From: Candidatus Vecturithrix sp.
GTDB lineage: Bacteria; Moduliflexota; Moduliflexia; Moduliflexales; Moduliflexaceae
NCBI GenBank assembly: GCA_040772385.1
Contig: JAXGYF010000001.1
Span: 5,048,545 to 5,112,544, forward strand
Length of the DNA stretch: 64,000 nt
Reading direction: 5' to 3'
The translations under genes were made by a program, and so were the position numbers. This document shows positions 38,254-64,000 of this stretch, piece by piece (positions within the stretch are counted from its first letter, which is position 1; each line of letters opens with the position of its first letter). The notes below the pieces were generated by a model that was not told where the DNA came from, ran no database searches, and saw only the letters and a list, made by a program, of their open reading frames with translations.

Positions 38254-38473
38254 GGTATTCTTTCCCCCTACATCAAGGTTCTTTAGTAGAATTTCACCAG
38301 GACATGCCTTTTTGCTTGACAAAAATTGAAAAAACCCGAAGATTTTTTTACACCTGCATAACTACAAGAACAGAGGAATACGTAAGAATTTTCAGTGGAG
38401 ATGTTTTTGTCAAGTATTTTCTTCCGGGAAACTCTCTTTTCGTGTATGAACGCGAGGGGGGGGCATCAGAGTG

Positions 38474-38924: not shown

Positions 38925-39100
38925 GAAATGTTTCGTATATACGAAACAAGTTTATTATATGCGAAACATGTTGCGTATATAATAAACCGGAGCACATGGC
39001 TGGCGGAAAAGTTTCGTATATACGTAACTTTTTTTGTGTCGTATATACGTAACAAATTTCGTATATACGTAACATGTTACGTATATACGAAACGGTTTCG
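38925..39100. repeat. Array of ~6 copies of a perfect 16-bp palindrome TTTCGTATATACGAAA (variants GTTACGTATATACGTAAC, TGTCGTATATACGTAAC) within ~180 bp
   Basis: Copies at about 38931, 38962 (degenerate), 39011, 39037, 39056 and 39077, with irregular 5-15-bp spacing, lying immediately left of the IS91-like element end. Confidence 0.8.
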
Positions 39101-39266
39101 GCCGCAAGTACGCAGCCTAATTCCTGTTGAACAAAGCCGCAGGGCGGCAGAAGAGTTTCGTGCTCCTCCCCACCATTTTTCTCTTGCCATGATCTGAACA
39201 GGTGTCATCCTCCTCCATGATGTATTCATCCTGCGTATGAACCTCATTCATCATGGAGGAGATACG

Positions 39267-40133
39267 ATGACCGCTCTGAGACACCGTTTCATTGAAGACC
39301 TGCAATTGCAGGGGAAGTCCGACCGGACGCAACAGGCCTACGTCCGCGCCGTGCGGATGCTGGCCGACCACTTCCACACCCCGCCGGATCAGCTCACCGA
39401 CGAGCAGATTCGGCAGTATTTCCTGTACGTCAAGAACACTCGACACTGGTCGTTTTCGACCATGAAACAGGCCCTGTGCGCTATCAAGACCTTGTATACG
39501 CAGACGCTGCACCGGGACTGGGGCATTCTGGACGTGATTCGTCCGCCGACATCGCAGACGCTGCCCGATGTCCTGACCCACGACGAGGTGCAGCGGCTGC
39601 TTCAGGCGGTGCGTCTGCCGCACTATCGGCTGTGCTTGACCACGATCTACTCGTGCGGATTACGCCTGACCGAAGGCGCCCAACTCCGGGTCACGGACAT
39701 TGACAGTGCCCGGATGCTCGTGCATGTGCGCCACGGGAAAGGGGACAAAGACCGCTATGTGCCGTTACCCCAACGTACCCTGGAGCTGCTGCGCCAGTAT
39801 TGGCTGACGCACCGCCATCCGGTGTGGCTGTTTCCGGCTGGCGGCGCTGGGCCGGTGCAGCGCCAGCCTGCTTCCGCCCCTCTCTCCGTCAGCACGCTGC
39901 AAAAAGCCTGTCGTCTCGCGAAGCAGGAGGCCGGGATCACCAAAACCGTCTCGGTCCACAGTCTGCGCCATGCCTATGCCACCCATCTGCTGGAAGCCGG
40001 CGTGAGCCTGCGCATGATTCAAGCCTATCTCGGACATACCTCTCCCCAGACCACGGCTCGTTACACGCATCTGACCTCCCAGGCGCAGACCAGCGCGGGC
40101 GTCGTCATTGACACCCTGATGCAGGATCTCTAA
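39267..40133 (+). CDS. Tyrosine recombinase (phage-integrase family) encoded upstream of the IS91-family transposase
   Basis: C-terminal catalytic region HSLRHAYATHLLEAGVSLRMIQAYLGHTSPQTTARYTHL. Such upstream recombinase genes occur in a subset of IS91-family members. Confidence 0.8.
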   Translation: MTALRHRFIEDLQLQGKSDRTQQAYVRAVRMLADHFHTPPDQLTDEQIRQYFLYVKNTRHWSFSTMKQALCAIKTLYTQTLHRDWGILDVIRPPTSQTLPDVLTHDEVQRLLQAVRLPHYRLCLTTIYSCGLRLTEGAQLRVTDIDSARMLVHVRHGKGDKDRYVPLPQRTLELLRQYWLTHRHPVWLFPAGGAGPVQRQPASAPLSVSTLQKACRLAKQEAGITKTVSVHSLRHAYATHLLEAGVSLRMIQAYLGHTSPQTTARYTHLTSQAQTSAGVVIDTLMQDL

Positions 40134-40154
40134 GCCCCTCATCGGAGGCCCGAG

Positions 40155-41291
40155 ATGCTGGAATTGGCTGACATCTTCCAGGCCTACGGTCCCGCGTATG
40201 AGGCGAAATACGGCGACCGCATGCCGCCCAGCCATCACGACGCGCTGTGGGACATCGCCCACTGCCGCACGCCCCTGATGGGGGGCGAGGTGTTCTGGTG
40301 TGCCCAGTGCCAGGACTTTGTCTACAGTTATCATTCCTGCGGCAACCGCCATTGTCCCAAATGCGGCGGTGACCGGGCCGACGCCTGGCGCGACGCCCAA
40401 CTCAAGAAGCTGCTCCCCGTGCCGTATTTTCTCGTGACGTTCACTCTGCCCCATTCCCTCAACGCCATCGCCCGTTCCCATCAACACGTGATCGATGACC
40501 TGCTCTTCAAAACGTCCGCGGATGCACTCCACACGCTCGCCTTGAATCCGGAGTGGCTCGGCGGCACGATTGGCATGGTGGGCGTCCTCCACACCTGGGA
40601 TCGGGCGATGGGCTATCACGTGCATGTCCATTATCTTGTGCCGGCCGGGGGGATCGATCCGGGCACCGGGGCCTGGATCCCCTCCCATCCGAAATTTCTC
40701 GTGCCCGCCTCGGCCCTGCGCGAGGTCTTCCGGGCCAAATTTCGCGACGCCCTGTACGCCGCCGATTCAGCCCTCTTCGCCCAGGTCCCGCCGGAGACCT
40801 GGAGCAAACAGTGGGTCGTGCACTGCAAGGCCGTCGGAGACGGACGCACGGCCCTGAAATACCTGGCCCCCTACGTCGCCCGCGTGGCCCTCTCGAATCG
40901 GCGACTGGTGACACTCGATGAGGGACAGGTCACGTTCCGCTATAAGCCCCACACGAGGCCCTGGACGACCATGACGCTCGACGTGATGAGCTTCATGCAG
41001 CGCTTCTTACAACACGTCCTGCCCAAAGGCTTCCAGAAAATCCGGTACACCGGCTTCCTGCACCCCAACGCCCGCACCATGTTCACGGCCCTACAAGCGC
41101 AGCTCGTCGCAGAGGCCGCCTCCGAGCGTCTGCCAGAGGTGCTGGCCGCCACGTTCGGCCTGGAGATCGGCAACGGGACGCCCAACGACGACCCGCCTGA
41201 CGACCCCCCGCGCGGTTGTCCGCACTGCGGTGGTCCGCTGGCCTTCGTCGGTCGCTTCCCTCGCGCCCCCCATCGACGAGGTCCTCCATGA
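40155..41291 (+). CDS. IS91-family transposase (N-terminal Zn-binding domain plus Y2 HUH transposase domain)
   Basis: CxxC...CxxC zinc-binding region (WCAQCQD...CGNRHCPKCG), an HUH-like HVHVHYLVP, and the catalytic Tyr region KYLAPYVARVALSNRRL. Confidence 0.8.
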   Translation: MLELADIFQAYGPAYEAKYGDRMPPSHHDALWDIAHCRTPLMGGEVFWCAQCQDFVYSYHSCGNRHCPKCGGDRADAWRDAQLKKLLPVPYFLVTFTLPHSLNAIARSHQHVIDDLLFKTSADALHTLALNPEWLGGTIGMVGVLHTWDRAMGYHVHVHYLVPAGGIDPGTGAWIPSHPKFLVPASALREVFRAKFRDALYAADSALFAQVPPETWSKQWVVHCKAVGDGRTALKYLAPYVARVALSNRRLVTLDEGQVTFRYKPHTRPWTTMTLDVMSFMQRFLQHVLPKGFQKIRYTGFLHPNARTMFTALQAQLVAEAASERLPEVLAATFGLEIGNGTPNDDPPDDPPRGCPHCGGPLAFVGRFPRAPHRRGPP

Positions 41292-41708
41292 CACGACGAA
41301 TACAACAGCGGACGATTGCCCCACCACGACGGGTTCGGAAAGTCTCCATTTTTCGGCGCACCGTCCCCGTCTGCCCATCGCCCAATGATCGCCTCATCTC
41401 TGTCCGATCACCAGGTGTTCACGGCCTCAACCTTCCATCATGGAGGTACTTGTCGCGAACAACGAAGAGGCATCTTCCCCCATCTGTGCCCCGCACACCG
41501 TCTCCACACTCACGTCATTTCGGAGCAAAATCCAAATAAGACCTTCTGAGAATTTTTTCCTTGACATGATGGGAAATCGCCCCCATATAACGAGGGGTGG
41601 GCTTGTTCAACAGAGATTATGTGCCGGATACTCGTCACATGAATCTTTAATCCGTTAGAACCTCCTTATAATAAGAGAAATTTACTCAATAAATCATAAG
41701 ATTATGTT

Positions 41709-44114
41709 ATGAATATACCACCAAGATTACAACATAGAATTGTTGATTTTCTTATATCTCTTCCGAGTATTCATGATAATAATAGTCAACGATCATTAAT
41801 CTACCAAGCCGGTCTAGATACAGAGTTACAAGGTCAGATTTCATTTGATAAACCAGCTATGCAGTTTGCCCTCTTCCTTGTGTCAACCTTAATAAAATAT
41901 GGTAAACTTAGTGATGGGCGATACGCTATTGAAGCTATTTTGGAGGCAGCAAAGAATTTTGTAGGACAAGATAGGAAAATATATTGTGAAACATTGATAA
42001 ATGAACTGCATGATTATACAATTGAAAAAGCTGATACACCATTATCAGATGATATCCCATTTTTAAAAAAGAGAAATTCTATAGTAGATGCTAAATACGA
42101 TCCCAAATTAGTCACAGAAATAAGGATAACTCCACCTGACTTGACTAATCAACAACAGTTACAAAATACTGGTGATAATTCTTTTGAGATAGATGCTTTT
42201 AAATCAAAGCTCTTAGATTATGAATTGAGTCAGTTAGGCTTACCTTCCTTGATTTTCCATCGGAACAATTTAGAAAGTGAGGGATTGCAGCTTATTCGTG
42301 AGGGTATTCTGCCTGTCATTTTGATTCAAGGTCTCCCTGGCTATGGAAAGACTGTATTGCTTGGTGAACTTGCCAAAAAGATTGGCCATGAATTTCAATA
42401 TACTTTGGTGTTAAATTTTTCTGGTCCAGCTTCTATAGAACCTTCTTATGTCATCGAAGAAATAAATACATTTCTCAATAAACTTGGCCGTGGTATTGAT
42501 ACAGAAATACTCAGAAAACAGAGTACTCAACGCTCTCTTCAAATTCTTATTCCTCAGATGATGGATCTACATCTTCTTCTACTTTTAGACGCAGTAGATG
42601 GTGTACCTCCTGGACAAATTGAAACATTTTTGCAATTCTTAACGGCAACCCCTAAAAATCGACTCATTATGACCGCTCGTTATAGAATCGTAAATAGGTC
42701 GAATGCTCATATATTACATGTGCCTCCATTATCGAACAAAGAAACTGCCGATTTTGTTGAACAGTATACTAAATCAATGAAGATCGGGGTTAATATAAAG
42801 GATTTATTGGAAAAACTCCCCAACAACATTAAAGAACATCCTCAAGCATTAAGCATGATTTTAGCAAATTTAGTTGATATTCCATTTGAACTTTTAGTAA
42901 TGCAAAGCTTCCATGACGATACATTAATCCTTCAACAGTTGGCTAAAAACATCCTTCTTGCTATAGATAAGGAAGTGTTGACTTGTTTAGTATTTATGAT
43001 AGTATTAGATGATCTTGACTTTATGGATACCCTTAAAATTTTAGAAATAAATCCTCCTAAAGGTCTGGTGAATTCTATTAATCTGTTATTGGAAAAGTCT
43101 TTGATTTATCGCCATGAAAATTCTTATCGTGTGCCTTCAATTATACATGAAGGGGTATTAAATTTAATTCCTGATATTGCAGAGACTATTCTAAATCAAA
43201 TAGGTTATATCTTAGAATTAAAAATCAACAGAATGCATTTACAAAGGGTATCAGATCATTTTGATAATCTTATTCCCATAGTTGTTACTATTATTCATCA
43301 TTTTTATCAAATGCGATCTTATGAATGGGTAACTAAACTTGTTATTGATGAATTCTTAGAATTTATCAATATGCGGGGTTTTTGGAAAGAATATTGGCTC
43401 ATTTTACGAATATCTTTTGATGCTGCAAAAAGAATAAACCAATTAAATATCTTTTCCAAAATAGGGTTTAGGATTGCTCGTAAATCTTTACAAATCCACG
43501 ATATTGATACTGGGAGTCAGGTATTAAGTGATGTGGAACGAGTTATTGGTGTTGATGGTAATACAATGGAGCATGCAGAATTTTGGAGTCATAAAGCTCT
43601 TTTCACCGAATTAACTGGATATACGGAGAATGCCAAAGAAGAACTACTGAAAAGTCTCCAAATTCGAGAATCGCTCTATGATGCTGAAGGTATTGCTGTT
43701 ATCCAAAAACTTTTAGGTAATATTCATTTGCGTTTAAAAGAATCAGATATAGCACGTCAATATTATGAGTCAGCATTGATATCTATCAATGAAAATACTT
43801 CCCAATTCAAACATATTATCGAAGTGGAAACGAGTCTCGCTTTGTGTGATCTGATAGATAATAAATTGGAATCGGCTGAATCCACACTTAGAAAAGTTAT
43901 TCAAAATTGTAAGAGTAAAGGCTATTTAGCTGGACTATCAAGAGCTTACTACAATTTGGCTTTAGTACTTGATCGTCAAAAACGTGTTGCTGAAGCTTTT
44001 TATTATGCTGAAATTGCTTCTAAGGAAGCTTTAAAAACAGATAAAGATATTATACTCGGTTCAGGAATACTTATGTGGCGATTAAAAAATTTAAAAGGAA
44101 CCTCTTGTAAATAA
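41709..44114 (+). CDS. STAND-class NTPase (NB-ARC-like P-loop) with an N-terminal alpha-helical adaptor/effector-associated-like domain and C-terminal TPR-like repeats
   Basis: Walker A LIQGLPGYGKTVLLGELAKK, Walker B HLLLLLDAVDG, a helical C-terminal half with TPR-like periodicity, and a 100-aa N-terminal helical domain. AT-rich at ~36% GC. Confidence 0.65.
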   Translation: MNIPPRLQHRIVDFLISLPSIHDNNSQRSLIYQAGLDTELQGQISFDKPAMQFALFLVSTLIKYGKLSDGRYAIEAILEAAKNFVGQDRKIYCETLINELHDYTIEKADTPLSDDIPFLKKRNSIVDAKYDPKLVTEIRITPPDLTNQQQLQNTGDNSFEIDAFKSKLLDYELSQLGLPSLIFHRNNLESEGLQLIREGILPVILIQGLPGYGKTVLLGELAKKIGHEFQYTLVLNFSGPASIEPSYVIEEINTFLNKLGRGIDTEILRKQSTQRSLQILIPQMMDLHLLLLLDAVDGVPPGQIETFLQFLTATPKNRLIMTARYRIVNRSNAHILHVPPLSNKETADFVEQYTKSMKIGVNIKDLLEKLPNNIKEHPQALSMILANLVDIPFELLVMQSFHDDTLILQQLAKNILLAIDKEVLTCLVFMIVLDDLDFMDTLKILEINPPKGLVNSINLLLEKSLIYRHENSYRVPSIIHEGVLNLIPDIAETILNQIGYILELKINRMHLQRVSDHFDNLIPIVVTIIHHFYQMRSYEWVTKLVIDEFLEFINMRGFWKEYWLILRISFDAAKRINQLNIFSKIGFRIARKSLQIHDIDTGSQVLSDVERVIGVDGNTMEHAEFWSHKALFTELTGYTENAKEELLKSLQIRESLYDAEGIAVIQKLLGNIHLRLKESDIARQYYESALISINENTSQFKHIIEVETSLALCDLIDNKLESAESTLRKVIQNCKSKGYLAGLSRAYYNLALVLDRQKRVAEAFYYAEIASKEALKTDKDIILGSGILMWRLKNLKGTSCK

Positions 44115-49281: not shown

Positions 49282-51300
49282 CTTAATAAAATCTAATAAT
49301 GGTGAATTTCAAGATTTTGATACAAAACATCATCCAATCCTAATCTGTTCAAGATCTCTTTTTGGAGTTCTGATAGAGGCGTAAGATGACGGATTATGTG
49401 ATCCTTCAGATGAATAATTGTCAGGGTAATCCCCTCAAATGCCTTCAGCAACCGTTCGCTGGTCGGCCTGTTAGTGGTCTTTCGTATATTCTCAGGATGC
49501 AATCCTGGGAAAGCCTTCTTTTCCCGCTCTAATGAACGTCTTACAACAAACTCGATACGCGTTAACGTTCGAACTCCCAATGTCAATAAGTGGTTTAAGC
49601 CTTTGACTTGATCCGGTTCCGTCACATACATCGGAGCAATATTCAAACGGTTTTTGAGACGATCGAAGAGCCGTTCAATTCGACATTCTTGCCGGTATAA
49701 TCGTACCGCATCTTCCAAACATCACCTGTCACCGGACGTATCAGTCACGTAGGCTCTCCACCCGAACGGCTCCTTGACGTGCTCAATCTTCGCGGCATCC
49801 CGGGTAACAGCCGTGATGTGATAGCGAATGCTTTCGACCACCTCTTGTTGACGATTCGCCCCTCCTCGGCCTCGGCCCCTGTATTTCGTTGTACGCTCAA
49901 CTTCGCGTTCATACTCAACACGAAGCAGACCGTCAACCCGATGCTGCTTCTCAATCGCCTCAATGGCAGCCTTCAAACTCTGCTCATCGGTTATCTGTTT
50001 TTTCCCTCGGCCACGCGGCGGGGTAAGGGCATACAGTTTCTGCTCGGCCTGGTCCAAACGGGTATCGAACCCACGTTCCTGCTGCCCGGCATGATTGAAG
50101 GACTTGACGACCAACACCCGTTCAGTCCATTCAAGCGTCTGGCCGTTGACCACCCCGGAGCACCGACGTTCAACCTCATACCCTGCGGCCACGATGGCCT
50201 CTTCACCGTTGGCATCTGTGACCACCACAGGTTGAAGGGCTTTCTCCTTTTCCAGGGCAATACCGTCTCGAACCCACTCTGCCATCACTTCCGGCGTCTT
50301 CCCGGTTTGAGGCAGAGGGCAAAGATAATGACCGCCCAGCCCTTTAATATGCAAACGCGTCTCAATGGCACTGAGCTTGCAATCGCCAACATAGAGAACG
50401 CCCTGTCTCTCAAGGACGGCATGAATGCGATTAATCACCGGAACATATAAGCCGTCATCCGCACGCTCGCCTGACACGACATCGGTCGCTAGCGGCATAC
50501 CAAGCGGATCAAGTGCCCCTGTCATGAGCTTGATGTGAGGTAAACTCGGGTCGTCTTTACTATGACCGAATTGAAAAAGACCTCCCTCCCTCACCTCATG
50601 GTAGCCCGAAACCGTCGTCGCGTCACACCTAACGACATCCGTTTCTAAATCATAGGCACGGATGCTCTTCTGATTTAGCTCGGCCTCGATCGGTTCCCAA
50701 TACGACGGCTTGCTCAAGTTCTTCAGCAAAATACCCAGGCGGTCATCCGTAAAATCAAGCTCCCTGACAGTTTGGCCACTCACCGTGCTCAACGTCTGCT
50801 CCAGGTTCTTCACATACTGCCTGACGACGACTTTTCGATGATCGCCCTCAGAAAGAATATAGGCTAACCAGATCACCGCTGTCCAGCCCCAGCTTAATTC
50901 ACGCTGTTTCCAATGGACCGGAATATGGTTGTCGAGAACCTCAGGTAAGCCCATCTGAACCAGCACTCCAATGATTAACACAATATCATCGACCCGCTCT
51001 GAGCGAATCTCGAAGTCTTTTCTTGACTCAACGTGCTCTTTTGTTAACATACGCCTCTATACCTCCTGTGATTTTTTTCTATCATCGCCTCACAGAGGGG
51101 CATATTGCGCAAATTAAATTTTACCTGTCAAAATAAAGCGAATGATGAGTGATAATAATATTGATAAGAAGTTAACTCAAATTCCTATTTTTGTGCCTTT
51201 AAGAAGCTTTGCTGAGTCAGGCTTATCCCTATTTGAATTCATTGTTCGCCAGTTTAAAATTTGTAATTTCCCTGATGCTGGCCCTTTTATTGAAACGATC
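49282..51300 (-). mobile_element. IS1634/IS4-like insertion sequence inserted in the NACHT gene; its transposase reading frame carries an in-frame TGA
   Basis: ORFs 49722-51050 and 49293-49718 are in the same frame, separated by the TGA at 49722-49724. Together they give a ~585-aa DDE transposase-like protein (C-terminal ...GWRAYVTD and ...YRQECRIERLFDRLK). The element boundaries are approximate. Confidence 0.55.
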
Positions 51301-52274
51301 TTGAGAAAAAGAGGTAATTTTAAGCTAACACCTCAGGTTTTCGCTCGACTGAAAGAGAACAATTTACCTAAGAAATATCTGAGTAAATTAAAAAATTTGG
51401 AAAATAAAGAATTCTCTACTGAAGAAGAGCTTTTTACTAATGTCCAAACATTTGTAGATGATAATAAAATTTTTGAAGAATATAAGGCATTATTTTTGCG
51501 ATACGCAAAAAACGAAAAGTGGAAAACTATTATTTTATGTGATGGATTAGATGAAGTTCCTAAAAAAGAAGACAAACGACAGAAAATTATTCAAGAATTA
51601 ATTGATTTCAGTAATGAATTTGAGGAAAGTCAGTTTGTTATCACATGTCGTATTGCTGCCTCAGAATATCATTTTGAAGGTTTTACCTATGTTGAAATTG
51701 CAGATTTTGATGAAAAACAAATTGCCTCTTTTATTAGGAATTGGTTTATGAATAGTTCTTCATTGGCGAACAATTTTCTCGAAGAGTTTGGGAAAATTGG
51801 TAATGAACGACTTCGTGATCTTGCTAGAACCCCTCTGATTCTTACACTTTTATGTATTTCTTATGAGAACACTCTTGAACTACCAATTCGACGCTCAGAA
51901 ATTTATAAAGAGGCTCTTGATGCATTATTGGTGAGATGGAGTGCTACTCGGGGAATTAAACGAGATGAAATATATAACCATTTATCTCTTGGCAGAAAAC
52001 AACAAATGTTTGCCCGTATTGCTGCGGAGACTTTCCAAAAGAGTCAGTATCTCATTAAACAAGAAGTTCTGGAAGAAAAAATTATTAAGTATTTAAGAAA
52101 TTTACCGCAAGTAAGTATGGATGAAGAGATTAATGGAACAGCAATTCTTAAAGCTATTGAATCCCAACATGGGATTTTTGTTGAGAGAGCCCAGGGCATT
52201 TACTCATTTTCTCATCTAACCTTTCAAGAATATTATGCCGCAAAATATATTTATGAACACCTTGATAAAGATAT
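51142..52274 (+). pseudogene. C-terminal fragment of the NACHT NTPase gene (Walker B ILCDGLDEV, TCR sensor, TPLILTLLC), truncated at its 3' side by IS91-family copy 2
   Basis: The 51142-52341 ORF lacks a Walker A motif. Its last residues (...LNKAAGRQKSFASLPTIFLLP) are encoded by the IS91-like left end. Confidence 0.6.
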
Positions 52275-52415
52275 GTTGAACAAAGCCGCAGGGCGGCAGA
52301 AGAGTTTCGCGTCCCTCCCCACCATTTTTCTCTTGCCATGATCTGAGGCGGTGTCATCCTGCTCCATGATGTATTCATGAGATCTCTGAACCTCTTTCAT
52401 CATGGAGGCCCTCCT

Positions 52416-53282
52416 ATGACCGCTCTCAGACACCGATTCATCGAAGACCTGCAGTTGCAAGGCACGTCTGACCGGACGCAACAGGCGTACGTCCGCGCGG
52501 TGCGGATGCTCGCCGAACACTTTCACACCCCGCCGGATCAGCTCACGGACGAGCAGATTCGGCAGTATGTCCTGTACGTCAAAAACACCCGACACTGGTC
52601 GTGTTCGACCATGAAACAGGCCCTCTGCGCCATCAAAACCTTCTACACCCAGACCGTACACCGGGAGTGGGGTCTGCTGGACGTGATTCGCCCGCCAAAA
52701 TCGCAGACCCTGCCCGATGTCCTGACCCACGACGAGGCGCAACGACTGCTTCAGGCGGTGCGCCTGCCGCACTACCGGCTGTGCTTGACGACCATCTACT
52801 CGTGTGGCTTGCGCCTGACTGAAGGCGCCCAGCTCCGGGTGACAGACATCGACAGCGCCCGGATGCTCGTGCATGTCCGCCGCGGCAAAGGGGACAAAGA
52901 CCGGTATGTGCCCCTCCCACAGCGCACCCTGGAACTCCTGCGCCAGTATTGGCTCACGCACCGCCATCCAATCTGGCTCTTTCCGGCCGGTGGGGCCGGC
53001 CCGGTGCAGCGTCACCCCGCCTCGACGCCCATCTCCGTGAGCACGCTGCAAAAAGCCTGTCGCCTCGCGAAGCAGGAGGCGGGCATCACCACACGGGTGT
53101 CGGTCCACAGTCTGCGCCATGCCTACGCCACCCATCTGCTGGAAGCCGGGGTCAGCCTGCGGATGATTCAAGCGTATTTGGGACATACGTCGCCCCAAAT
53201 CACGGCCCGTTACACCCATCTCACCTCCCAGGCCCAGACCAGCGCGGGCGCCGTCATTGACGAGCTGATGCAGGATCTGTAA
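52416..53282 (+). CDS. Tyrosine recombinase of IS91-family copy 2
   Basis: Paralog of the 39267-40133 gene. Confidence 0.8.
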   Translation: MTALRHRFIEDLQLQGTSDRTQQAYVRAVRMLAEHFHTPPDQLTDEQIRQYVLYVKNTRHWSCSTMKQALCAIKTFYTQTVHREWGLLDVIRPPKSQTLPDVLTHDEAQRLLQAVRLPHYRLCLTTIYSCGLRLTEGAQLRVTDIDSARMLVHVRRGKGDKDRYVPLPQRTLELLRQYWLTHRHPIWLFPAGGAGPVQRHPASTPISVSTLQKACRLAKQEAGITTRVSVHSLRHAYATHLLEAGVSLRMIQAYLGHTSPQITARYTHLTSQAQTSAGAVIDELMQDL

Positions 53283-53309
53283 CCCTCCACACATCTTAGG
53301 AGGCAACGG

Positions 53310-54446
53310 ATGCTGGAATTGGCCGACATCTTTCAGGAATATGGCCCTGCGTATGAGGCGACGTACGGCGACCGCATGCTGCCCAGCCACCGGGATGCGC
53401 TGTGGGATATCGCCCACTGCCGCACGCCTCTGATGGGGGGCGAGGTGTTCTGGTGCGAGCACTGCCAGGATGTTGTGTACAGCTACCACTCCTGCGGCAA
53501 CCGCCATTGTCCGAAATGCGGCGGCGACCGGGCCGATGCCTGGCGCGACGCCCAACTCAAGAAGCTGCTGCCCGTCCCCTATTTTCTCGTGACCGTCACC
53601 TTGCCCCATGCCCTGAATCCGATGGCGCGATCGCACCAGCAGCTCGTCTATGATCTGCTGTTCAAAACATCGGCGGACGCGCTCCAGACCCTGGCCCTGA
53701 ATCCAGAGTGGCTCGGCGGCACGATTGGCCTGGTGGGCGTCTTACACACCTGGGATCGGGCGATGGGGTATCACGTGCATGTCCACTATCTTGTCCCAGC
53801 CGGCGGGATCGATCCGGACACCGGAGCATGGATGCCGTCGCATCCGAAATTCTTGGTCCCCGCTTCGGCCCTGCGGGAGGTCTTCCGGGCGAAATTCCGC
53901 GACGCTCTGCACGCCGCCGATCCGGCCCTCTTCGCGCAGGTCCCACCCGAGACCTGGAGCAAACAGTGGGTGGTGCACGGCAAGGCCGTCGGAGACGGAC
54001 GCACCGCCCTGACATATCTGGCCCCCTACATTGCCCGCGTCGCCCTGTCCAATCGGAGACTGGTCGCCCTGGAAGCCGGGCACGTCACGTTCCGCTATAC
54101 GCCGCGCACGAAGCCCTGGAGGACCATGACGCTCGACGTCATGCGCTTCATGCAGCGCTTCTTACAGCATGTGTTGCCCAAAGGCTTCCCAAAAATCCGG
54201 TATACCGGCTTCCTGCACCCCAACGCCCGGACCACGCTGGCGGCCCTCCAGGAGCAGCTCGCCACAGAGGCCGCTGACGAACGCCTGCCAGCGGCGTTGG
54301 CGGCCACCTTCGGTCTGCAGATTGGCGCCAGCGCGTCCGACGACGCCCCCCCTGACGAGACGCCACGCTGTTGTCCGCACTGCGGCGGGCCGCTGGCCTT
54401 CATCGGCCGCTTCCCGCGATCCCCTCATCGCCGAGGTCCCCCATGA
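53310..54446 (+). CDS. IS91-family transposase, copy 2
   Basis: Paralog of the 40155-41291 gene. Confidence 0.8.
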   Translation: MLELADIFQEYGPAYEATYGDRMLPSHRDALWDIAHCRTPLMGGEVFWCEHCQDVVYSYHSCGNRHCPKCGGDRADAWRDAQLKKLLPVPYFLVTVTLPHALNPMARSHQQLVYDLLFKTSADALQTLALNPEWLGGTIGLVGVLHTWDRAMGYHVHVHYLVPAGGIDPDTGAWMPSHPKFLVPASALREVFRAKFRDALHAADPALFAQVPPETWSKQWVVHGKAVGDGRTALTYLAPYIARVALSNRRLVALEAGHVTFRYTPRTKPWRTMTLDVMRFMQRFLQHVLPKGFPKIRYTGFLHPNARTTLAALQEQLATEAADERLPAALAATFGLQIGASASDDAPPDETPRCCPHCGGPLAFIGRFPRSPHRRGPP

Positions 54447-54829
54447 CACCACGAGCCCGACACCTCACCGTCATCTTCCCACAACCGGTTCGGAAAATCC
54501 TCTTTTTCCGGCGCATCGTCCTCGTCTGCCCATCGCCCGGAAATCGCCTCATGGCGGTGCGAATACACCATACTCACGGCCTCGATATTCCCTTCTGGCG
54601 GCACTCGCCGCGCGCATGCAAGGGGCACATTCCGCCATTCCCGAGGATTTTTCAGCCTCCACAGCCTGGTCATTTCGGAGCAAAATCCAAAGAACACATT
54701 CTCCATATTTTTTCCTTGACATGTCGGCAGATCGCCCCCATACAAAGAGGGGTGGGCTTGTTCAACAGAGATTATGTGCCGGATTCTCGTCACATGAATC
54801 TTTAATCCGTTAGCAGGGAAAAGGTGAGA

Positions 54830-55060
54830 AGGAAGACGAGCACGCACGACACATGCAACACAAACGTCGCGAAACAAAAAACTTGACACCCGAAGATCGA
54901 AGAGAGAACATGTAAGCAAGAGACAACGACACAAAGAAACACCCAATACACAAACAGGCAAGCAAGAAACACACAAGGAAGGAAGAAACAAACAAACAAG
55001 TAAGTAAGTAAGCAAGCAAGAAAGCAACCAACAAACAAACAAGCAACAAGCAACAAGAGA
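54830..55060. repeat. AC-rich low-complexity / microsatellite-like tract (CAAACAAG, AAGCAAGC, AAGTAAGT units)
   Basis: About 230 bp of strand-asymmetric A+C-rich simple sequence, immediately right of IS91-family copy 2 and upstream of hicB. Confidence 0.7.
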
Positions 55061-55778: not shown

Positions 55779-56087
55779 ATGAATATACTACAACAAATAC
55801 CTTGGCTTGAGATAGGGCTATATTTTAGCATGATAATGGGTATGGCCGCCAAATATCTCTATGATGAACTTAGTTTAGTCAAAAGAAAAAAGTTCAGGTT
55901 CCGTAAGTGGCAATTTCTTCGACCTATTATCATTTCTCCAATTGTGTTTGGGGTAATTTATGGTCTTACTGATGAGACTACTTCTCCTATACTCCTATTC
56001 ATGTTTTCTTTTCAAAATGGTTTCTTTTGGCAAACAATTTTAAATAAACCTGAAACAAGAGATTCAAGTAACTTTGATGCTTTCTAA
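55779..56087 (+). CDS. Small integral membrane protein (3 predicted TM helices)
   Basis: Hydrophobic segments LEIGLYFSMIMGMAAKYLY, IISPIVFGVIYGL and ILLFMFSFQNGFFW. It overlaps the start of the next gene. Confidence 0.45.
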   Translation: MNILQQIPWLEIGLYFSMIMGMAAKYLYDELSLVKRKKFRFRKWQFLRPIIISPIVFGVIYGLTDETTSPILLFMFSFQNGFFWQTILNKPETRDSSNFDAF

Positions 56088-56109
56088 AACTTCTATGAGG
56101 GTGAATACA

Positions 56110-56988
56110 ATGCCAATAATTCCAATACCTTATCATTTCAGTACAACAATCACACAAAAGGATCTATTCATTAACCGGAAAAATGATATTGGTAAAATTG
56201 TTCGAGCATTATCTGGATTTCAGATGAACAACATTTCTGTCATTGGCGAAAGGAAAATAGGAAAATCTTCGTTGCTTTATTATATTTCGAAGTATGAAGA
56301 ATTGCCAGATATAAAGACAGTATTCTTCGATTTTCAAAATAAAGCTGAAGCAAAGATTTTTTATGAACAAATTTGCTCAGAACAAATTACGGATTCTTCA
56401 CAAAAAATAGCGTATTTTCTTGATGAACTTGAATCCGCCTCAAGCTTCGGAGAAACTTTTTTTAAAAAGTTACGCTCTGTTGCCAATAAACCTAATATTG
56501 CGTTAGTTACAGCATCAAGAGCCCCACTATCTACAATTTGTCCCGAGTTTTCTGATGATTCCTCTCCCTTTTATAATATTTTTGTTCCACAAAGTTTAAC
56601 GAATTTTTCTAAGGAGGATACTATCGAACTAATAACAGAAACACCAAAAAGAGTGGGATTGAAACTAAAGCCCGAACAATTTTTTACTCATGACGAAATT
56701 AGATTAATTGTTAAACTCTCAAATTGCCACCCATGGAAGATTCAACTCTACAGCTACTATTTCTTTGAAGCAAAAGTCAACAATATCATCGAAAAAAATG
56801 AAGTTAAGCTGCAAATTAGAGAGGCTTTAAAAATGCAAAGTGGGCAAAAAGAATTGCTGCCCGTCTTAAATTCAGATATTGATATTAGAGAAGTTCTGTC
56901 TACAGATGTTAGCCCTTTGATAAAAAATCTTTTCCAGTTTTTGATCGAAATAGCAACTGAATATGCCACGAAAAAATATATCGGCTAA
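56110..56988 (+). CDS. P-loop ATPase of the Arch_ATPase / AAA-like family
   Basis: FINRKNDIGKIVRAL...VIGERKIGKSSLLYYI (Walker A) and IAYFLDELE (Walker B). The start could be the upstream Met at 56074. Confidence 0.5.
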   Translation: MPIIPIPYHFSTTITQKDLFINRKNDIGKIVRALSGFQMNNISVIGERKIGKSSLLYYISKYEELPDIKTVFFDFQNKAEAKIFYEQICSEQITDSSQKIAYFLDELESASSFGETFFKKLRSVANKPNIALVTASRAPLSTICPEFSDDSSPFYNIFVPQSLTNFSKEDTIELITETPKRVGLKLKPEQFFTHDEIRLIVKLSNCHPWKIQLYSYYFFEAKVNNIIEKNEVKLQIREALKMQSGQKELLPVLNSDIDIREVLSTDVSPLIKNLFQFLIEIATEYATKKYIG

Positions 56989-57022: not shown

Positions 57023-57233
57023 TTGTGATGTGAAGGCACATCGTGGAGTGTTTTGGTGAAAGCACTCCATAAAAATTGAAAAAGGATGTACTGCAATCAC
57101 ATCGTAGCCTATTATGATCCTGTTTTTTCGTAATATGGCGTTTTTTCAGATAAGCTGCTGATACGCCGACTCTACGAAGTGCTTGCACGAATGTAGTAAA
57201 TCATCCTAAGCTACGATGTGCCTTCACATCACA
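57023..57233. repeat. MITE-like ~210-bp element bounded by perfect 20-bp terminal inverted repeats GTGATGTGAAGGCACATCGT / ACGATGTGCCTTCACATCAC
   Basis: A perfect 20-bp inverted repeat at 57023-57042 and 57214-57233. A third partial copy, CACATCGTAGC, lies inside. Confidence 0.55.
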
Positions 57234-57254
57234 CATAATAATATTCATATAATT

Positions 57255-58835
57255 ATGATCTCGTTAAATAAAGTACTAGAGCTTCTTGGAATTATCAAGC
57301 AATTGCGTTCATGTGAAACATTAGCGGAAATTGCTAAACAAGAGGATAATTTACAGAAAGCAAGTGTAGGGTTACTATTCAAGAAAGAACTAAATACATT
57401 ACGAAAGATTGTTGCCGATATTAACAAGTTTTTGACAGTCAGCAACAAGATTGAGAAGCATGAGCTATTAGAAGAAATAGTTGCTTTAATCGAAGGAACT
57501 GAATATTATCTAAACCCTAAGTTGGCTGGTGTAATTTATGGACTGATTTATCTTGTAATTTTTGTTGTATTGGCTAGTATAACTATAACTCCATTTCAAG
57601 CGATTATTATCGTTTTTTCATTAGGAGTTTTATCCTATTTTTCGATGGGATTCATTTATACGCTTTACATATTCCCCTTCTATAATAAAAGCTTATCTTT
57701 GATCTTGAAGGAAGAAGAATTACTTATTGCTTCTTTAAATATCAAACACATCCCGAACAATTATATAGTAGGACCTCCTATTCGGCCTGGAAAACATAAT
57801 CTGTTCGTTGGGAGGGAGTTAATTTTTAGGAGGATTTTGGGGTTATTAGAGAATCAATTTGATAAACCATCTATTATTCTACACGGGCAACGAAGAATGG
57901 GCAAAACCTCAATACTATATCACATAGAAGACTATTTCAAAAACTCCTCTACTAAATTTAATATTATCACAATATTGGCCGATATGCAATCTGTTACGCA
58001 AGTCAAAAATGTAGGTGAGTTTCTTTATAATGTCTGTCGAATAATTCGAAATACAGTAAGTAAATATGGAGTAATGGTAGAACTCCCCACTGTTGAATCT
58101 TTTGAAAAACGACCGTTTCTTAGATTTGACGAGTTTTTGGATGAATTAACTAAGCTCATATCTCCGTATAGTTACATCTTTTTAATGTTAGATGAATTCG
58201 AGGAAATAGAGTATAAAATAAAGCAAGGTATCTTTCAAAAAAATCTGCTGGAAGAATTTCGAAGTATAATGCAACATCGAGAAAAGCTGTTCCTAATTTT
58301 TTCAGGTTCACATGCTTTGAATGAGATGTGCAAAGATTTTTGGTCTCCATTTTTCCACATAGCAGAGCCTATTAAAATAGGGTATTTATCTGACGAAGCT
58401 GCAACAAGACTGATAACCACTCCATGGGAGAATTTTCCCATTAGCTATGAGTTAGCCGCAGTGAAGGAAATTATGCGAATTACCGGCAATCAACCGATGC
58501 TAATTCAGGTTATTTGTCGTACACTCATAGATCAAATGAATGAACAGTTGGATTCACAACAAATTCTTCCATATAAGTTTCCAAAACTTAGAATCCAAAA
58601 TGTACATGAGGCGATTGGGCAAAGTCTGACTGGAAGTTATTATTTTGAGGCAATGTGGAACAGTTTGGAGAAATCAGAGCAAATGCTATTAACAAATATG
58701 GCAAGAGGGAAGGAAGAGACATCTCAGAATATTGACGATGATGTAGTACATTCGCTTCAAAAAAAGGAATTGCTGACCAATGATAATAAATACAGAATTC
58801 CCTTGTTGCATGATTGGATTCGAGAGAATAAATAG
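57255..58835 (+). CDS. Membrane-anchored P-loop ATPase (N-terminal TM helices plus Arch_ATPase/AAA-like domain)
   Basis: LFVGRELIFRRILGLLE...ILHGQRRMGKTSILYHI (Walker A), IFLMLDEFEE (Walker B), and TM helices at about residues 90-150. Confidence 0.5.
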   Translation: MISLNKVLELLGIIKQLRSCETLAEIAKQEDNLQKASVGLLFKKELNTLRKIVADINKFLTVSNKIEKHELLEEIVALIEGTEYYLNPKLAGVIYGLIYLVIFVVLASITITPFQAIIIVFSLGVLSYFSMGFIYTLYIFPFYNKSLSLILKEEELLIASLNIKHIPNNYIVGPPIRPGKHNLFVGRELIFRRILGLLENQFDKPSIILHGQRRMGKTSILYHIEDYFKNSSTKFNIITILADMQSVTQVKNVGEFLYNVCRIIRNTVSKYGVMVELPTVESFEKRPFLRFDEFLDELTKLISPYSYIFLMLDEFEEIEYKIKQGIFQKNLLEEFRSIMQHREKLFLIFSGSHALNEMCKDFWSPFFHIAEPIKIGYLSDEAATRLITTPWENFPISYELAAVKEIMRITGNQPMLIQVICRTLIDQMNEQLDSQQILPYKFPKLRIQNVHEAIGQSLTGSYYFEAMWNSLEKSEQMLLTNMARGKEETSQNIDDDVVHSLQKKELLTNDNKYRIPLLHDWIRENK

Positions 58836-60044: not shown

Positions 60045-61094
60045 ATGAGAATATTTGGCATTGACGATGATGGAACATTCAAAGAATATGGAGAAATACC
60101 ATTCCAACAGGAACATACAGAAGCTCTACTTGAGAGTTGGTTAGAAGCCAATCCCCAAAATATTCTTGAAGACGGTAATTTGCTCATTATTGGGCGACAA
60201 GTGACCACAAATTTAGGTAGTGTCATTGATTTGCTCGGTATTGACCGACAAGGCGATCTCGTCGTCCTTGAATTAAAACGGGATCGAACCCCGCGAGAAA
60301 CGCTTGCGCAAGTTTTAGAGTATGCCTCTTTTGTAGAAGAACTCGGAGCTGAACAATTAGAAACCATTCTACGAAACTATCTCAACGACGAATCTATCAG
60401 TTTAGCCGAATACCATCAACAGTATTTCACCATTGCCCCAGAAGAAGCGGTCGTCTTGAACAATGATCAGCGATTAGTCATTGTCGGTCAGCGTATCACC
60501 GAAGACATCCTGCAAACAGCCCTATTTTTACGGAAAAAAGGCCTACGTGTCACCTGTTTAGAATTCTCATTTTTCAAAACAGCCGAAGGGCTGAAACTTC
60601 TCTCATATGATATTGTGGTTGGCAGAGAGACTTACAACGTCAAACAAATTGCGTCAGGAGCCTTACCAATCATCTCACGGGAGGCATTTCTGGCCTCTTT
60701 AGATGATACCGGACGAGAGGTCTTTCAAACGATTTTAACCTATGCTGATGAGGAAGCCTTACCCATTCATTGGGGGAGTAAGGGATTTTCGCTCAATGTT
60801 GATAAGCATGGGATGCATGTGGCTATTTGCTTTGGCTATCCTCCGCATTCCGTCTATAAACAATCATTATATACAGCGCTTGTTGGACGAGGCGGGTTAC
60901 TCAGTAAACTCACTATCCCTGAAGAACAGATCACGCAATTATGGCAAAAAGCGGAATCTACCGGGTTATTTCAACGTGCTGGAAAAGAATTAAAATGTGT
61001 ACTTGACAAAGAGTTCTCACACGAGCAAATCAAGGTCATCGTAGCATGGCTGAAAGATGTTGTCGCAATGGTTCAACAATATGAGACGAAGTGA
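60045..61094 (+). CDS. PD-(D/E)xK nuclease-superfamily protein (NucS/DUF91-like N-terminal domain) with a C-terminal extension
   Basis: GSVIDLLGIDRQGDLVVLELKRDRTPRETLAQVLEYASF contains the D...E-L-K catalytic triad typical of restriction-endonuclease-like folds. Confidence 0.5.
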   Translation: MRIFGIDDDGTFKEYGEIPFQQEHTEALLESWLEANPQNILEDGNLLIIGRQVTTNLGSVIDLLGIDRQGDLVVLELKRDRTPRETLAQVLEYASFVEELGAEQLETILRNYLNDESISLAEYHQQYFTIAPEEAVVLNNDQRLVIVGQRITEDILQTALFLRKKGLRVTCLEFSFFKTAEGLKLLSYDIVVGRETYNVKQIASGALPIISREAFLASLDDTGREVFQTILTYADEEALPIHWGSKGFSLNVDKHGMHVAICFGYPPHSVYKQSLYTALVGRGGLLSKLTIPEEQITQLWQKAESTGLFQRAGKELKCVLDKEFSHEQIKVIVAWLKDVVAMVQQYETK

Positions 61095-61101
61095 TAAGAA
61101 C

Positions 61102-61215
61102 GCCGAACAAGGCGTTTGCAGCGGACTCCGGGAAGGCGGGCGGAAAAATTGGTTGCTCTTTCCCGAAGTTTGGTTGCGCCCGCCTTCCCGAAGCCGCTGA
61201 AACGCGGTCATTAGT
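61102..61215 (+). other. attC-like site (GCCGAAC ... GCGTTTGCAGCGGACTCCGGGAAGGCGGGCGG ... CCGCCCGCCTTCCCGAAGCCGCTGAAACGC), 3' core degenerate or disrupted
   Basis: The 5' half is typical of the family. A 3' GTTCGGC-like core is not found, and the sequence runs into the GC-rich block. Confidence 0.45.
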
Positions 61216-61995
61216 GTGCCAAGCGAAGCTTGGTGTATCTTGCAGGGTGCAAGTCCCTGCCGGGACCCACCCGTAGCGAGTGTTGCGTCATGGGCGGACA
61301 TGAGAGTGGTGATGGTATGCAGGTCTTTGAGGCACGGAAGGGGACACCCGGACACAGACGACTCCTGAAACCTCAAGACCTCTCATGGAACACGCATGAC
61401 GAAGCGTCCACAGCGAATCGTGCAGGCCGTAGGGGAGACCGTGACTCCCTGAACGTTGACATCGCTCCGAACTCGCTCTTTCAGTCGTCGAGGGAGGTCA
61501 CGCAGACCGACGACTCTCTCAAGCATCCGTGAGGAGAGCATGGCCACCGCTGAGGCGACCCGTGAGTGCAAGGATGTGGCGGGCTGGCGGAGTTCACTGG
61601 AAACGGTGGCATGGATGAAGAGATACAGACAAGCACGTGGGAAGCCCCGGAGATTGTCTCACATTCCAACGTGAGAACAGACGTGGAGTCCCCTCACCGG
61701 GAAAGCGTCTGCTCCGAGGTGGCGGATGCCCTCGTCGTACTCCGAGGAGGAGAAAGACCGCTCCATGGGAAAGGGGGGCACGGGAGGACGTAGCCGTACA
61801 GGAAACGTCTGCCGGACATGCAGGGTCGGAGACCAGGAGCCAACCTCACTGCGGGGAAGAGCACATCAGGAAATGAAGTGACTTGTCTGACACGGAAGCG
61901 AGTCCAACCGAGGAGCCTTGTGAGGGAACACTTCACGCAGGGATCTGTGCGGGGGGAGCCGGGTGACCGGCTTTCCTACCGCGTCGCCCTCTTTT
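61216..61995 (+). other. GC-rich (~58%) ~780-bp segment without a credible ORF, wedged after an attC-like site; candidate ORF-less group II (class C-attC-like) intron or other structured RNA / foreign fragment
   Basis: Only short overlapping ORFs on both strands. The 5' end begins GTGTGCC..., and a GNRA-capped hairpin GAGCCGGGUGACCGGCUUUC lies near the 3' end. The composition is discordant with the flanking ~38% GC cassettes. Confidence 0.3.
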
Positions 61996-62038: not shown

Positions 62039-63457
62039 ATGAGTAAGCTTTTGAGAGTATGGATGTACATCAAAACAAGGAAACTGAGATCGGTTGTCAT
62101 TCTTTTCTTTCTGTGTATTCTTTTCGGCTCGACGTACTTCTCTTTCGAATATGGATACATGTTTCACCCTCCAACAGCCAGGATTCCTCTTGGAAGCCAT
62201 TTTCCAGATCTGCCTCCCGATGAACGGCATCATTACCTTGAGTTTTTCGTTGATCATGACGAGCCCTCTAGGGGGACATTTATGGGATTTTTTCGGCTCA
62301 GTCCGAATTTTCAAAAAGGCTCGGAAGTGATTTTCTATCTCACAGACGGTCAGCAGGAAAAGGTTGGCCTTTCACCATGGGACGAATATTTTGAAGGAAA
62401 ACTTGAAGGGCTCTCTTACGTCACCATCTGCCGACGAGGGCATTATCCGATATTGTTTCCTGAGGTGTTCGATGCCGAGGGAAAGCCAGATTTGAAGGAG
62501 GCACTTCAGCTCTATGGAACATCCCAACAAATTGAAGACATTGAAACTGTGCGCTTGGCGATGCTTGCCAAAGGACTCATTCCTCCTCATGGAAAAATTA
62601 TGCTCTACGGAACCTCTGGAGGAGGGATTCTTATCGAGCAATATCTCGCGAAATATGGGAGAAACGTCTCACGCGCTTTGATCGAAGCCTCATACGGTGG
62701 CGATGTCTTCAGAAAACGAAAAGGCTCATATGACGACTGGCTCCTAGACAGGATGGCAACGCACTCTCCAGAGACATTGGCAAAACTCACTGAAATCGTT
62801 GAGTCGGGAGATGTGGATCGAACACAATTTTCCTTCCTGCTTCAGCGGCCATGTTATTTTTCGTTTCAAGGTGAACAATTCGTTCTGGACCTCATTGACG
62901 ATGTGCACTCCGGAGGAAAATGGGCATACTGGAAAGCGTTATGTCATCCTGGCTACAATTTCACGGTTGTTGATTTCATGATGCAGCTTCCCATTGAATT
63001 GGCCGTGAAGGTCAGATGCTATGAAATACTGGGAGAACGTATTGTTGAATACCGGAAGAGGACGTCGAAGCGAATCAATTTGATGTATGAATGGGCACAG
63101 CATACGATTTCTGATTTCATCACGGCGAGGGAAATGGGAGCAATCAGCGCTGTGAATCTTGGAATTGAGGGGCAGCGACAGGCGTTCACAGGGGAAATTG
63201 TCTTCATGGCCGCCGATGGCGACCACGTGTTCCCAAGTGAAGCCGTTCAATTGTCCGCCATGGAATACCCGACATCCCGTTTCGCCCTTTTTCATGATAC
63301 TCACATCTTTGGAGTGGAGGACAACCAACAGTATTATCGTGATGTCCGCCGAACGTTCTTCGAGCATGGACTACACTCACCTGAATTCGACACGGTGATG
63401 TCTGATGGACGTCAATTGAACAGGGAAGAGAGTCGAACACATGATGGCAGCTCTTAA
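62039..63457 (+). CDS. Alpha/beta-hydrolase-fold protein with N-terminal TM/signal anchor (GxSxG nucleophile elbow GTSGG)
   Basis: IMLYGTSGGGILIEQY and an N-terminal hydrophobic segment VVILFFLCILFGSTYF. Confidence 0.45.
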   Translation: MSKLLRVWMYIKTRKLRSVVILFFLCILFGSTYFSFEYGYMFHPPTARIPLGSHFPDLPPDERHHYLEFFVDHDEPSRGTFMGFFRLSPNFQKGSEVIFYLTDGQQEKVGLSPWDEYFEGKLEGLSYVTICRRGHYPILFPEVFDAEGKPDLKEALQLYGTSQQIEDIETVRLAMLAKGLIPPHGKIMLYGTSGGGILIEQYLAKYGRNVSRALIEASYGGDVFRKRKGSYDDWLLDRMATHSPETLAKLTEIVESGDVDRTQFSFLLQRPCYFSFQGEQFVLDLIDDVHSGGKWAYWKALCHPGYNFTVVDFMMQLPIELAVKVRCYEILGERIVEYRKRTSKRINLMYEWAQHTISDFITAREMGAISAVNLGIEGQRQAFTGEIVFMAADGDHVFPSEAVQLSAMEYPTSRFALFHDTHIFGVEDNQQYYRDVRRTFFEHGLHSPEFDTVMSDGRQLNREESRTHDGSS

Positions 63458-63735: not shown

Positions 63736-63899
63736 ATCGAGAAGCATGGGATCTGTGGTGGAACCAGGAACAACAAGAATGTGATTCAATACCGTAAAAG
63801 CTGGGAACAGGAGAGGATGAACACTTAAATGTTGGTATTTAAAAAGAATTGGGGGCTAACAATGGCTTGGAGGACGATTTCAAGCCCGCTGGCGTCAAT

Positions 63900-63992
63900 T
63901 CACGAAATGAGCATGTCTTAAGGCTCAGAGGAATTTCAGGCGTGGTCGGCGTCGGTCAGGGCGGGCTTCAAACGCCTCAAGCCGGGCGTTCG
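63900..63992 (+). other. Probable attC-like site at the window edge (…CAGGGCGGGCTTCAAACGCCTCAAGCCGGGCGTTCGGCG)
   Basis: Shares the GGGCGTTCGGCG 3' end and the GGGCGGGC motif of the other sites. Its 5' boundary is unclear. Confidence 0.4.
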
Positions 63993-64000
63993 GCGTAAAA

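Follow-up and report, generated by a model that had tools for sequence, protein, structure and literature searches.

The window (the whole 64,000-nt stretch of DNA analysed here) carries a chromosomal integron. Two tandem integrase genes are located on the minus strand and are followed by an array of plus-strand reading frames separated by attC sites. The attC of one cassette is interrupted by a 772-nt block, which is the subject of this study. The features of the integron that bear on it are the following.

36022-37008, minus strand: integron integrase (TIGR02249)
37270-38322, minus strand: integron integrase (TIGR02249)
about 46430, 55510, 59900, 61102 and 63856: related attC sites, in the array to the right of the intI genes
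60045-61094, plus strand: ORF of the upstream cassette, 349 aa, with a weak NucS_C-like match; the intron targets the attC of this cassette
61102-61213, plus strand: attC of the upstream cassette
61102-61108, plus strand: R'' of this attC, GCCGAAC
61126-61145 and 61174-61193, plus strand: arms of the imperfect palindrome of this attC
61210-61213, plus strand: ATTA, first 4 nt of the R' core; 5' exon of the intron, IBS1 position
61214-61985, plus strand: ORF-less class-C-type group II intron, as assigned below, 772 nt, 60.4% G+C
61986-61988, plus strand: GCC, start of the 3' exon
62039-63457, plus strand: ORF of the downstream cassette, 472 aa, without a match to any family
63856-63996: attC after the downstream cassette

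The two integrases match TIGR02249 with scores of 440 and 406 bits. Their genes have in common a 107-nt stretch that is 79% alike, and the presence of two paralogues on one platform is unusual. An 18-bp perfect palindrome, GTTTCGTATATACGAAAC, occurs six times at 38926-39100, with spacings of 20-25 nt, in the stretch from the 5' end of intI to the first IS-like unit; the copies could form an operator array or belong to attI. Two GC-rich (~63%) units, 39125-41658 and 52274-54813, are inserted in the cassette array. They are 87-89% identical and each encodes a tyrosine recombinase and an IS91-family Y2 transposase. An A/C-rich low-complexity repeat (AAAC/AAGC/AAGT units, 54925-55046) is found at the right-hand end of the second of these IS-like units. 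Several cassettes of 32-38% G+C (41709-44114, 51142-52341, 56074-56988 and 57216-58835) encode STAND/NACHT-type NTPases, one of them with the arrangement EAD8-NACHT-TPR, and are candidate defence or signalling genes.

The interrupted attC site

The attC of the upstream cassette was delimited by alignment with four other attCs of the array, with which it aligns through …CCGCTGAAACGCGG. The block begins beyond the palindrome, 4 nt into the R' core (ATTA/GTGTGCC, the slash marking the junction). This is the loss of the 3' core of the attC at 61102 that the first-pass annotation of this DNA had noticed at the start of the block. On the other side the core is restored as ATTA/GCC, in agreement with the 3' junctions of the family described below. 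The reconstructed empty site, …GGTC ATTA/GCC CTC…, is the split R' core, and precise exon ligation here would read …GGTCATTA/GCCCTC…. In the GTT of the window R' core the conserved G is now A. Several miRNA-like Rfam matches at 61113-61204 were rejected, being merely the attC palindrome.

A 1.4-kb Logan contig (L001) is identical to the window in the upstream gene, the attC and the intron 5' end. An exact-protein look-up returned only this contig for the upstream cassette protein and no record for the downstream one. Since the sole Logan match is identical to the window, no empty site was recovered. The only sample in which this sequence turned up is SRR27584552.

The adjacent kilobases have a G+C content of 0.43-0.45 and the more distant cassettes one of 0.32-0.38. 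The contrast between the intron and the AT-richer cassettes is accounted for by a mobile element importing its own composition. The first-pass annotation, which had described a block of 58% GC in an array of ~38% GC, was right about the GC-rich block; its value for the array fits the distant cassettes only. Its limits for the block, 61216-61995, are replaced by a start at 61214 and an end at 61985, the latter because of the family 3' consensus CCUACCRCGWC. It had also reported no ORF longer than 80 codons. Two longer ones overlap the intron, a TTG-initiated ORF of 100 codons at 61230-61532 on the plus strand and an antisense ORF of 119 codons at 61017-61376 on the minus strand, neither with a family match. 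A Pfam search of the three forward frames of 61214-61985 gave zero matches.

Anatomy and relatives of the intron

The helices of the domains were taken from an RNAalifold consensus of 27 relatives, from which the window was left out, and threaded onto the window sequence. The parts of the intron, all on the plus strand, are as follows.

61214-61218: 5' terminal GUGUG (GUGYG consensus), in register with 60+ relatives
61219-61640: domain I, closing helix 61219-61223 / 61636-61640
61264-61265: site of a 12-nt deletion; the conserved domain I hairpin AAGGNUUAGCCANCC is lost (RF02005 positions ~12-38)
61299-61387: expanded variable domain I hairpin, stem CAUGAGAG/CUCUCAUG
61329-61357: relocated module GAGGCACGGAAGGGGACACCCGGACACAG, inside the expanded domain I hairpin
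61492-61508: EBS1-equivalent hairpin loop, GGGAGGUCACG in the window (UCAC at 61498-61501), GGGUUUUAACG in the family
about 61641-61723: domain II, helix 61641-61654 / 61711-61723
about 61727-61780: domain III, helices 61727-61733 / 61774-61780 and 61740-61751 / 61757-61769
61765-61881: remnant of the reading frame of the intron-encoded protein (IEP), ATG + 38 codons, MGKGG…TSLRGRAHQEMK and stop
61781-61910: compact domain IV, conserved structure and a short cap hairpin
61866-61872 / 61884-61890: domain IV cap hairpin, in the place of the ~1.3-kb IEP ORF of the relatives
61913-61945: domain V, GAGCCUUGUGAGGGAACACUUCACGCAGGGAUC, 33 nt, AGC triad at 61914-61916, 2-nt bulge
61949-61982: domain VI, GUGA tetraloop at 61963-61966, bulged branch-point A at 61978

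Domains V and VI are the best preserved. All 13 consensus pairs of domain V are retained in the window, 4 of them through compensatory changes, as are all 14 pairs of domain VI. The bulged branch-point adenosine, 61978, is 6-8 nt away from the 3' end, as expected of a group II domain VI. In a local Rfam search the segment 61911-61984 matched RF00029, the model of group II domains V and VI, with 37.5 bits and an E-value of 1.9e-5. This is 2.5 bits under the gathering score of 40, and at gathering thresholds nothing in the whole window passes; domains V and VI of the relatives L027, L044 and L045 score 42.5-43.7 bits with the same model. The first-pass annotation had proposed a covariance-model search, and its call of an intron was weak because no convincing domain V had been seen; that domain has since been located. 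Its other structural observations, the GTGTGCC start close to the group II GUGYG consensus and a GNRA hairpin near the 3' end, correspond to the GUGUG in register with the relatives and to the GUGA-capped hairpin at 61958-61971.

The models of the upstream domains behave differently. RF02005 (group-II-D1D4-6), which we take to be a class C model, and the other D1-D4 models gave no match to the window copy at E<=10, a 456-nt search included. Relatives score 79-125 bits with RF02005, and since they have been shown to match, the miss by the window copy is informative. It is attributed to the deletion of the 12-nt hairpin and an 85-nt expansion, with both of which the failure coincides. The minimum free energy of the single sequence is no better than that of shuffles (z = -1.05), which is uninformative for a sequence so rich in GC. 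In its 5' layout of GUGUG, hairpin and then AGGGUGNNAGUCCC, the terminator-targeting class C intron O.i.I1 is presumably similar to the family, a likeness to be taken as a lead only.

Homology connects the whole block to introns elsewhere. In blastn searches against plasmids, domains V-VI of the window align with the 3' ends of annotated ltrA introns, and the 5' 90 nt match a truncated intron directly after an attC in Catenovulum. Altogether, 61214-61985 is homologous to >100 intron loci elsewhere; the block has not come about by chance. When a collection with one genome for each species was scanned with a motif taken from the intron 5' end, 43 loci were returned. Six of these are ~2.0-kb introns that encode proteins of 440-508 aa and score 102-125 bits with RF02005. 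The proteins match TIGR04416, the group II RT/maturase equivalog, with 347 bits; they consist of RVT_1 and GIIM, have no endonuclease domain and end about 25 aa past the maturase domain. The window aligns with the ~2.0-kb introns in five collinear blocks (query positions 1-85, 188-258, 355-434, 524-655 and 660-773). About 1.3 kb, which comprises the ORF, is absent from the window between element positions ~650 and ~680.

The window intron is devoid of an RT/maturase gene. Domain IV contains only the 38-codon remnant, which is homologous to the IEP N-termini (MGKDL…TSLRG…), and tblastn with the IEPs of six relatives found no other IEP-like sequence in the 64 kb. The domain V-VI structure, the homology to RT-encoding introns and the insertion inside the R' core bear out the suggestion of the first-pass annotation that the block is a class C group II intron of the kind that targets attC.

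Several members of the family are unusual in other ways. The first intron nucleotide is variable, with GCGCG, UCGCG, CCGCG, CAGCG and UUGCG as 5' ends, which is unusual among group II introns. There is also a GAGCC…GGGAUC subtype of domain V, in which the middle G of the AGC triad faces an A (G·A) in place of the U (G·U), again unusual for group II introns.

The ORF-less lineage and its target

The ORF-less architecture of the window was found in two genome-scan loci, L010 (a Desulfosarcina MAG) and L027 (Ca. Desulfatibia). Metagenomes were scanned for the junction pattern of IEP codons ~30-38, then 10-40 nt, then CGGAAGCGAGT, and 69 loci with this architecture were obtained. Complete elements of 620-830 nt and 50-60% G+C make up 28 of the 69. 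Each stands after (c)GTTA, and their flanks are all different. In all 28 a short hairpin stands in the place of the ORF, and the sequence of this hairpin varies while its pairing is retained; 7 of the 7 pairs of this domain IV cap hairpin covary across the family.

Calculated from 19 sequences, the RNAalifold consensus of domains IV, V and VI contains 65 pairs, and double changes occur at 25 of these. The proportion of paired cells in this region is 97.8%, as compared with 87.2% after column shuffling and 32-42% when the partners are slid, and not one of 500 shuffles attains any of the observed measures. In many ORF-less relatives an in-frame stop occupies codon 20 of the remnant, the nucleotide sequence and structure of which are nevertheless retained. 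Because stops in the remnant are tolerated and the pairing covaries, conservation acts at the RNA level. If the DIVa region of other group II introns is a guide, the part of domain IV that is retained, its start with the first ~38 codons, is presumably bound by the IEP.

The loci L058 and L111 are 99.9% identical and have unrelated flanks, and the same is true of several pairs at 95%. Such near-identical ORF-less copies in unrelated surroundings point to recent movement. The lineage is presumably mobilised by the RT of full-length relatives acting in trans. Decay by internal deletion also occurs in the family, since L045 (915-1597) is an independent deletion derivative, in which some of domains I-III and the greater part of the ORF are gone and ~300 nt of the IEP 3' end are kept. 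This family of ORF-less introns is widespread and has apparently not been described yet.

Nearly all copies of the family are preceded by the cGTTA of an attC R' core. EBS1 of the family is the domain I loop GGGUUUUAACG, which pairs with the exon end (C)GUUA. The two sides covary, EBS1 (U/G/C)AAC changing together with exon GUU(A/C/G), as in L103 (GAAC/GUUC) and L071 (CAAC/GUUG), and this covariation fixes the 5' junction.

The introns are also oriented in a preferred way. In the window the intron and the cassette ORFs are on the plus strand and the intI genes on the minus strand. Of the 50 decisive cases in the family, 42 have flanking ORFs that run in the direction of the intron and 8 have them opposite (binomial p ~1e-6), a count that uses the longest flanking reading frames and thus crude ORF calls. 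In L010, all six neighbouring ORFs run with the intron. The IEPs of the full-length relatives are at most 43% identical to plasmid-borne IEPs in PLSDB, DNA similarity to a full-length member is confined to two environmental plasmids, and scans of viral contigs gave no family matches. Cassette co-orientation, the low identity to PLSDB proteins and the mere two similar environmental plasmids mark this family as a distinct attC-targeting lineage.

Some family introns are placed in direct tandem or immediately behind the domains V-VI of another copy (L103 36-1059, L044 3261-3335 and the upstream flank of L033), as if a further intron could use the 3' end of a resident one as its target. In three metagenome loci (L061, L075 and L098; Ga03152xx metagenomes) the ORF-less intron is 97.5-100% identical and 5' and 3' flanks occur in mixed combinations. 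These could be due to cassette-shuffling recombination between intron copies or be assembly chimeras.

State of the window copy and comparison with known introns

It is very probable that the element in the window is an ORF-less, class-C-type, attC-inserted group II intron of a protein-less lineage and that this copy is most likely a non-mobile relic which splices poorly or not at all. The more comprehensive reading is that of an undescribed, actively mobile, MITE-like non-autonomous family, which occupies the top strand of attC R' in the sedentary integrons of sediment bacteria and of which the window copy is a decayed member. All parts of this reading taken jointly are put forward tentatively, at slightly less than even confidence.

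The window copy is at most 71% identical to any relative. It keeps 169 of 196 consensus pairs (86%), most relatives keeping 91-97%, and 34 of its pairs are kept through compensatory double changes. These figures, together with the intact pairing of domains V and VI, show that its lineage evolved under structural constraint. The deleted 12-nt hairpin, with its loop UAGCC, is present in 27 of 27 aligned ORF-less relatives and in the RF02005 consensus; it is also present in 23 of 25 aligned genome-scan loci, the other two of which diverge from the family at this place. Only two of four positions can pair between the window EBS1, UCAC, and the 5' exon, AUUA, and the EBS1 loop has been remodelled (GGUC/GACC stem) so that it is able to fold on itself. 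A 29-nt GAAA-hairpin module, which has its place in domain II in 12 relatives (for instance at intron nt 382-409 of L093), is absent from domain II of the window and is located inside domain I instead, with GACA as its loop. The shift looks like an internal translocation or a template switch. The deletion junction of the window, GTCCCTGCCGGGACCCACCCGTA, has no match in JGI metagenomes or viral contigs.

Judged from its sequence, the window copy is most likely a relic, a reading that we favour with reasonable though not strong confidence. It rests on the hairpin deletion, the EBS1 mismatch, the relocated module and the lack of a copy with the same junction and of an IEP in the 64 kb. The competing reading, in which the copy still works as a non-autonomous intron that splices out of the cassette transcript and is open to mobilisation by an IEP from another part of the genome, its lesions being tolerated or compensated, agrees with the fully paired domains V and VI, the 34 compensatory changes among the 86% of pairs kept and the canonical GUGUG 5' end. 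Other members also tolerate insertions around the missing hairpin, and the ORF-less family is demonstrably active elsewhere. A working intron would, however, have to do without a hairpin possessed by every relative aligned through the region and by the RF02005 consensus. Its EBS1 is not complementary to the 5' exon at a position where the family covaries, its deletion junction recurs neither in JGI metagenomes nor in viral contigs, and the 64-kb window supplies no IEP, all of which makes continued activity unlikely. The word 'remnant' of the first-pass annotation is to be qualified: the block looks like a damaged copy of a group II intron, and yet it is not a random one, being a member of a conserved ORF-less lineage.

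The block might have arisen on the spot, from a full-length intron that inserted here and lost its ORF by internal deletion, rather than having been ORF-less on arrival. L045, with ~300 nt of the IEP 3' end, is a precedent for independent deletion, and the 3' end of the ORF (CATCAGG…) is longer in the window than in L010 and L027, by about 26 nt. This origin is nonetheless improbable: the alignment with the ORF-less relatives is continuous over the junction (query positions 524-775, 73-76% identity), the 5' junction lies within 1-3 nt of theirs, and the cap hairpin is at the same place. Still further from the evidence are the readings that deny an intron. The overlapping ORFs of 100 and 119 codons are what could be said for a protein-gene fragment from a GC-rich donor, which the first-pass annotation had named as the alternative to an intron, or for a cassette with an unrecognised small ORF. 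No sign of such a fragment was found: none of the forward frames has a Pfam match, the similarity to the IEPs seen by tblastn ends with the 38-codon remnant, and the homologues carry stops and indels that are not multiples of three while their base pairing is conserved, so that this origin is hardly conceivable. An unrelated structured RNA, for instance a cassette sRNA or regulatory RNA resembling an intron only at its ends, would be in keeping with the lack of an Rfam family at gathering score in the window. It is contradicted by collinear homology to bona fide introns in five blocks over the whole element and is given next to no weight.

With the copy regarded as an intron relic, a sequence of events can be proposed. 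Introns of the family would insert right after the attC stem-loop, past the GTTA of the R' core, by means of a 4-5-nt EBS1-IBS1 pairing, and would use the strand that is transcribed together with the cassettes. Splicing and movement would depend on an RT supplied in trans by full-length relatives. The window copy would have entered between the cassettes 60045-61094 and 62039-63457, splitting the R' core, and would later have lost the domain I hairpin and the EBS1/IBS1 complementarity and undergone internal rearrangement. What persists is most likely a relic that forms a structured GC-rich spacer in the cassette transcript.

The ORF-less introns of Thermosynechococcus elongatus, reportedly a system with homing-type targeting in a different host, offer a parallel. 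They likewise coexist with ORF-containing relatives and have proliferated to multiple sites, a spread that implies trans action of an IEP (Mohr et al. 2010, PMC2882425). The family described here differs in that its target is an integron DNA stem-loop and in that the ORF-less form occurs across many environmental metagenomes. C.te.I1 of Clostridium tetani (PMC4424553, PMC3919590) is, like the window element, a bacterial group II intron without an IEP, but it is located in a gene and self-splices robustly, whereas the window element occupies a recombination site between genes and seems to be impaired.

The closest likeness is to the group IIC-attC introns, S.ma.I2 of Serratia marcescens and its relatives (Léon et al. 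2010, PMC3001079). These have in common with the present family a class-C-type ribozyme, an RT/maturase without an endonuclease domain (here in the relatives), insertion into attC after the stem-loop and inside the 7-bp core, and a very short EBS1-IBS1 pairing. The window element differs from them in that it has no IEP and occupies the top strand at R', in the same direction as the cassette genes. The published IIC-attC introns use the bottom strand and run against the cassettes (PMC3001079, PMC7923331). This orientation has been stated to hold always for attC-targeting introns (PMC3001079), and a single exception in the same orientation was remarked on in Shewanella algae (PMC9229058). As far as they are described in a later paper, the terminator-targeting class C introns B.h.I1 and O.i.I1 (Robart et al. 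2007, cited in PMC4424553) are likewise inserted directly 3' of a stem-loop, in the direction of transcription. By that description, their stem-loop is a Rho-independent terminator and not an attC, and the ribozyme of the present family, about 650 nt without the ORF, is larger.

For annotation, the 772-nt GC-rich 'gap' is an intron, probably a dead one, and neither a cassette nor a gene fragment. With a strong bias to the transcribed attC strand, the >100 related loci challenge the published rule that attC-targeting introns are always opposite to the cassettes. If the reading is true, RT-based surveys undercount bacterial group II introns, and the family would represent a minimal system from nature in which a ribozyme is directed to attC with an IEP in trans. 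As a MITE-like parasite of full-length class C introns it would have kept only its ribozyme and that start of domain IV to which the IEP binds, and would be spliced from cassette transcripts. It would also provide a route by which introns inactivate or fuse cassette boundaries in chromosomal integrons, and introns may in this way mediate the fusion or shuffling of cassettes. At the locus itself, if the split attC is unusable by the integrase, the cassettes 60045-61094 and 62039-63457 would act as one unit.
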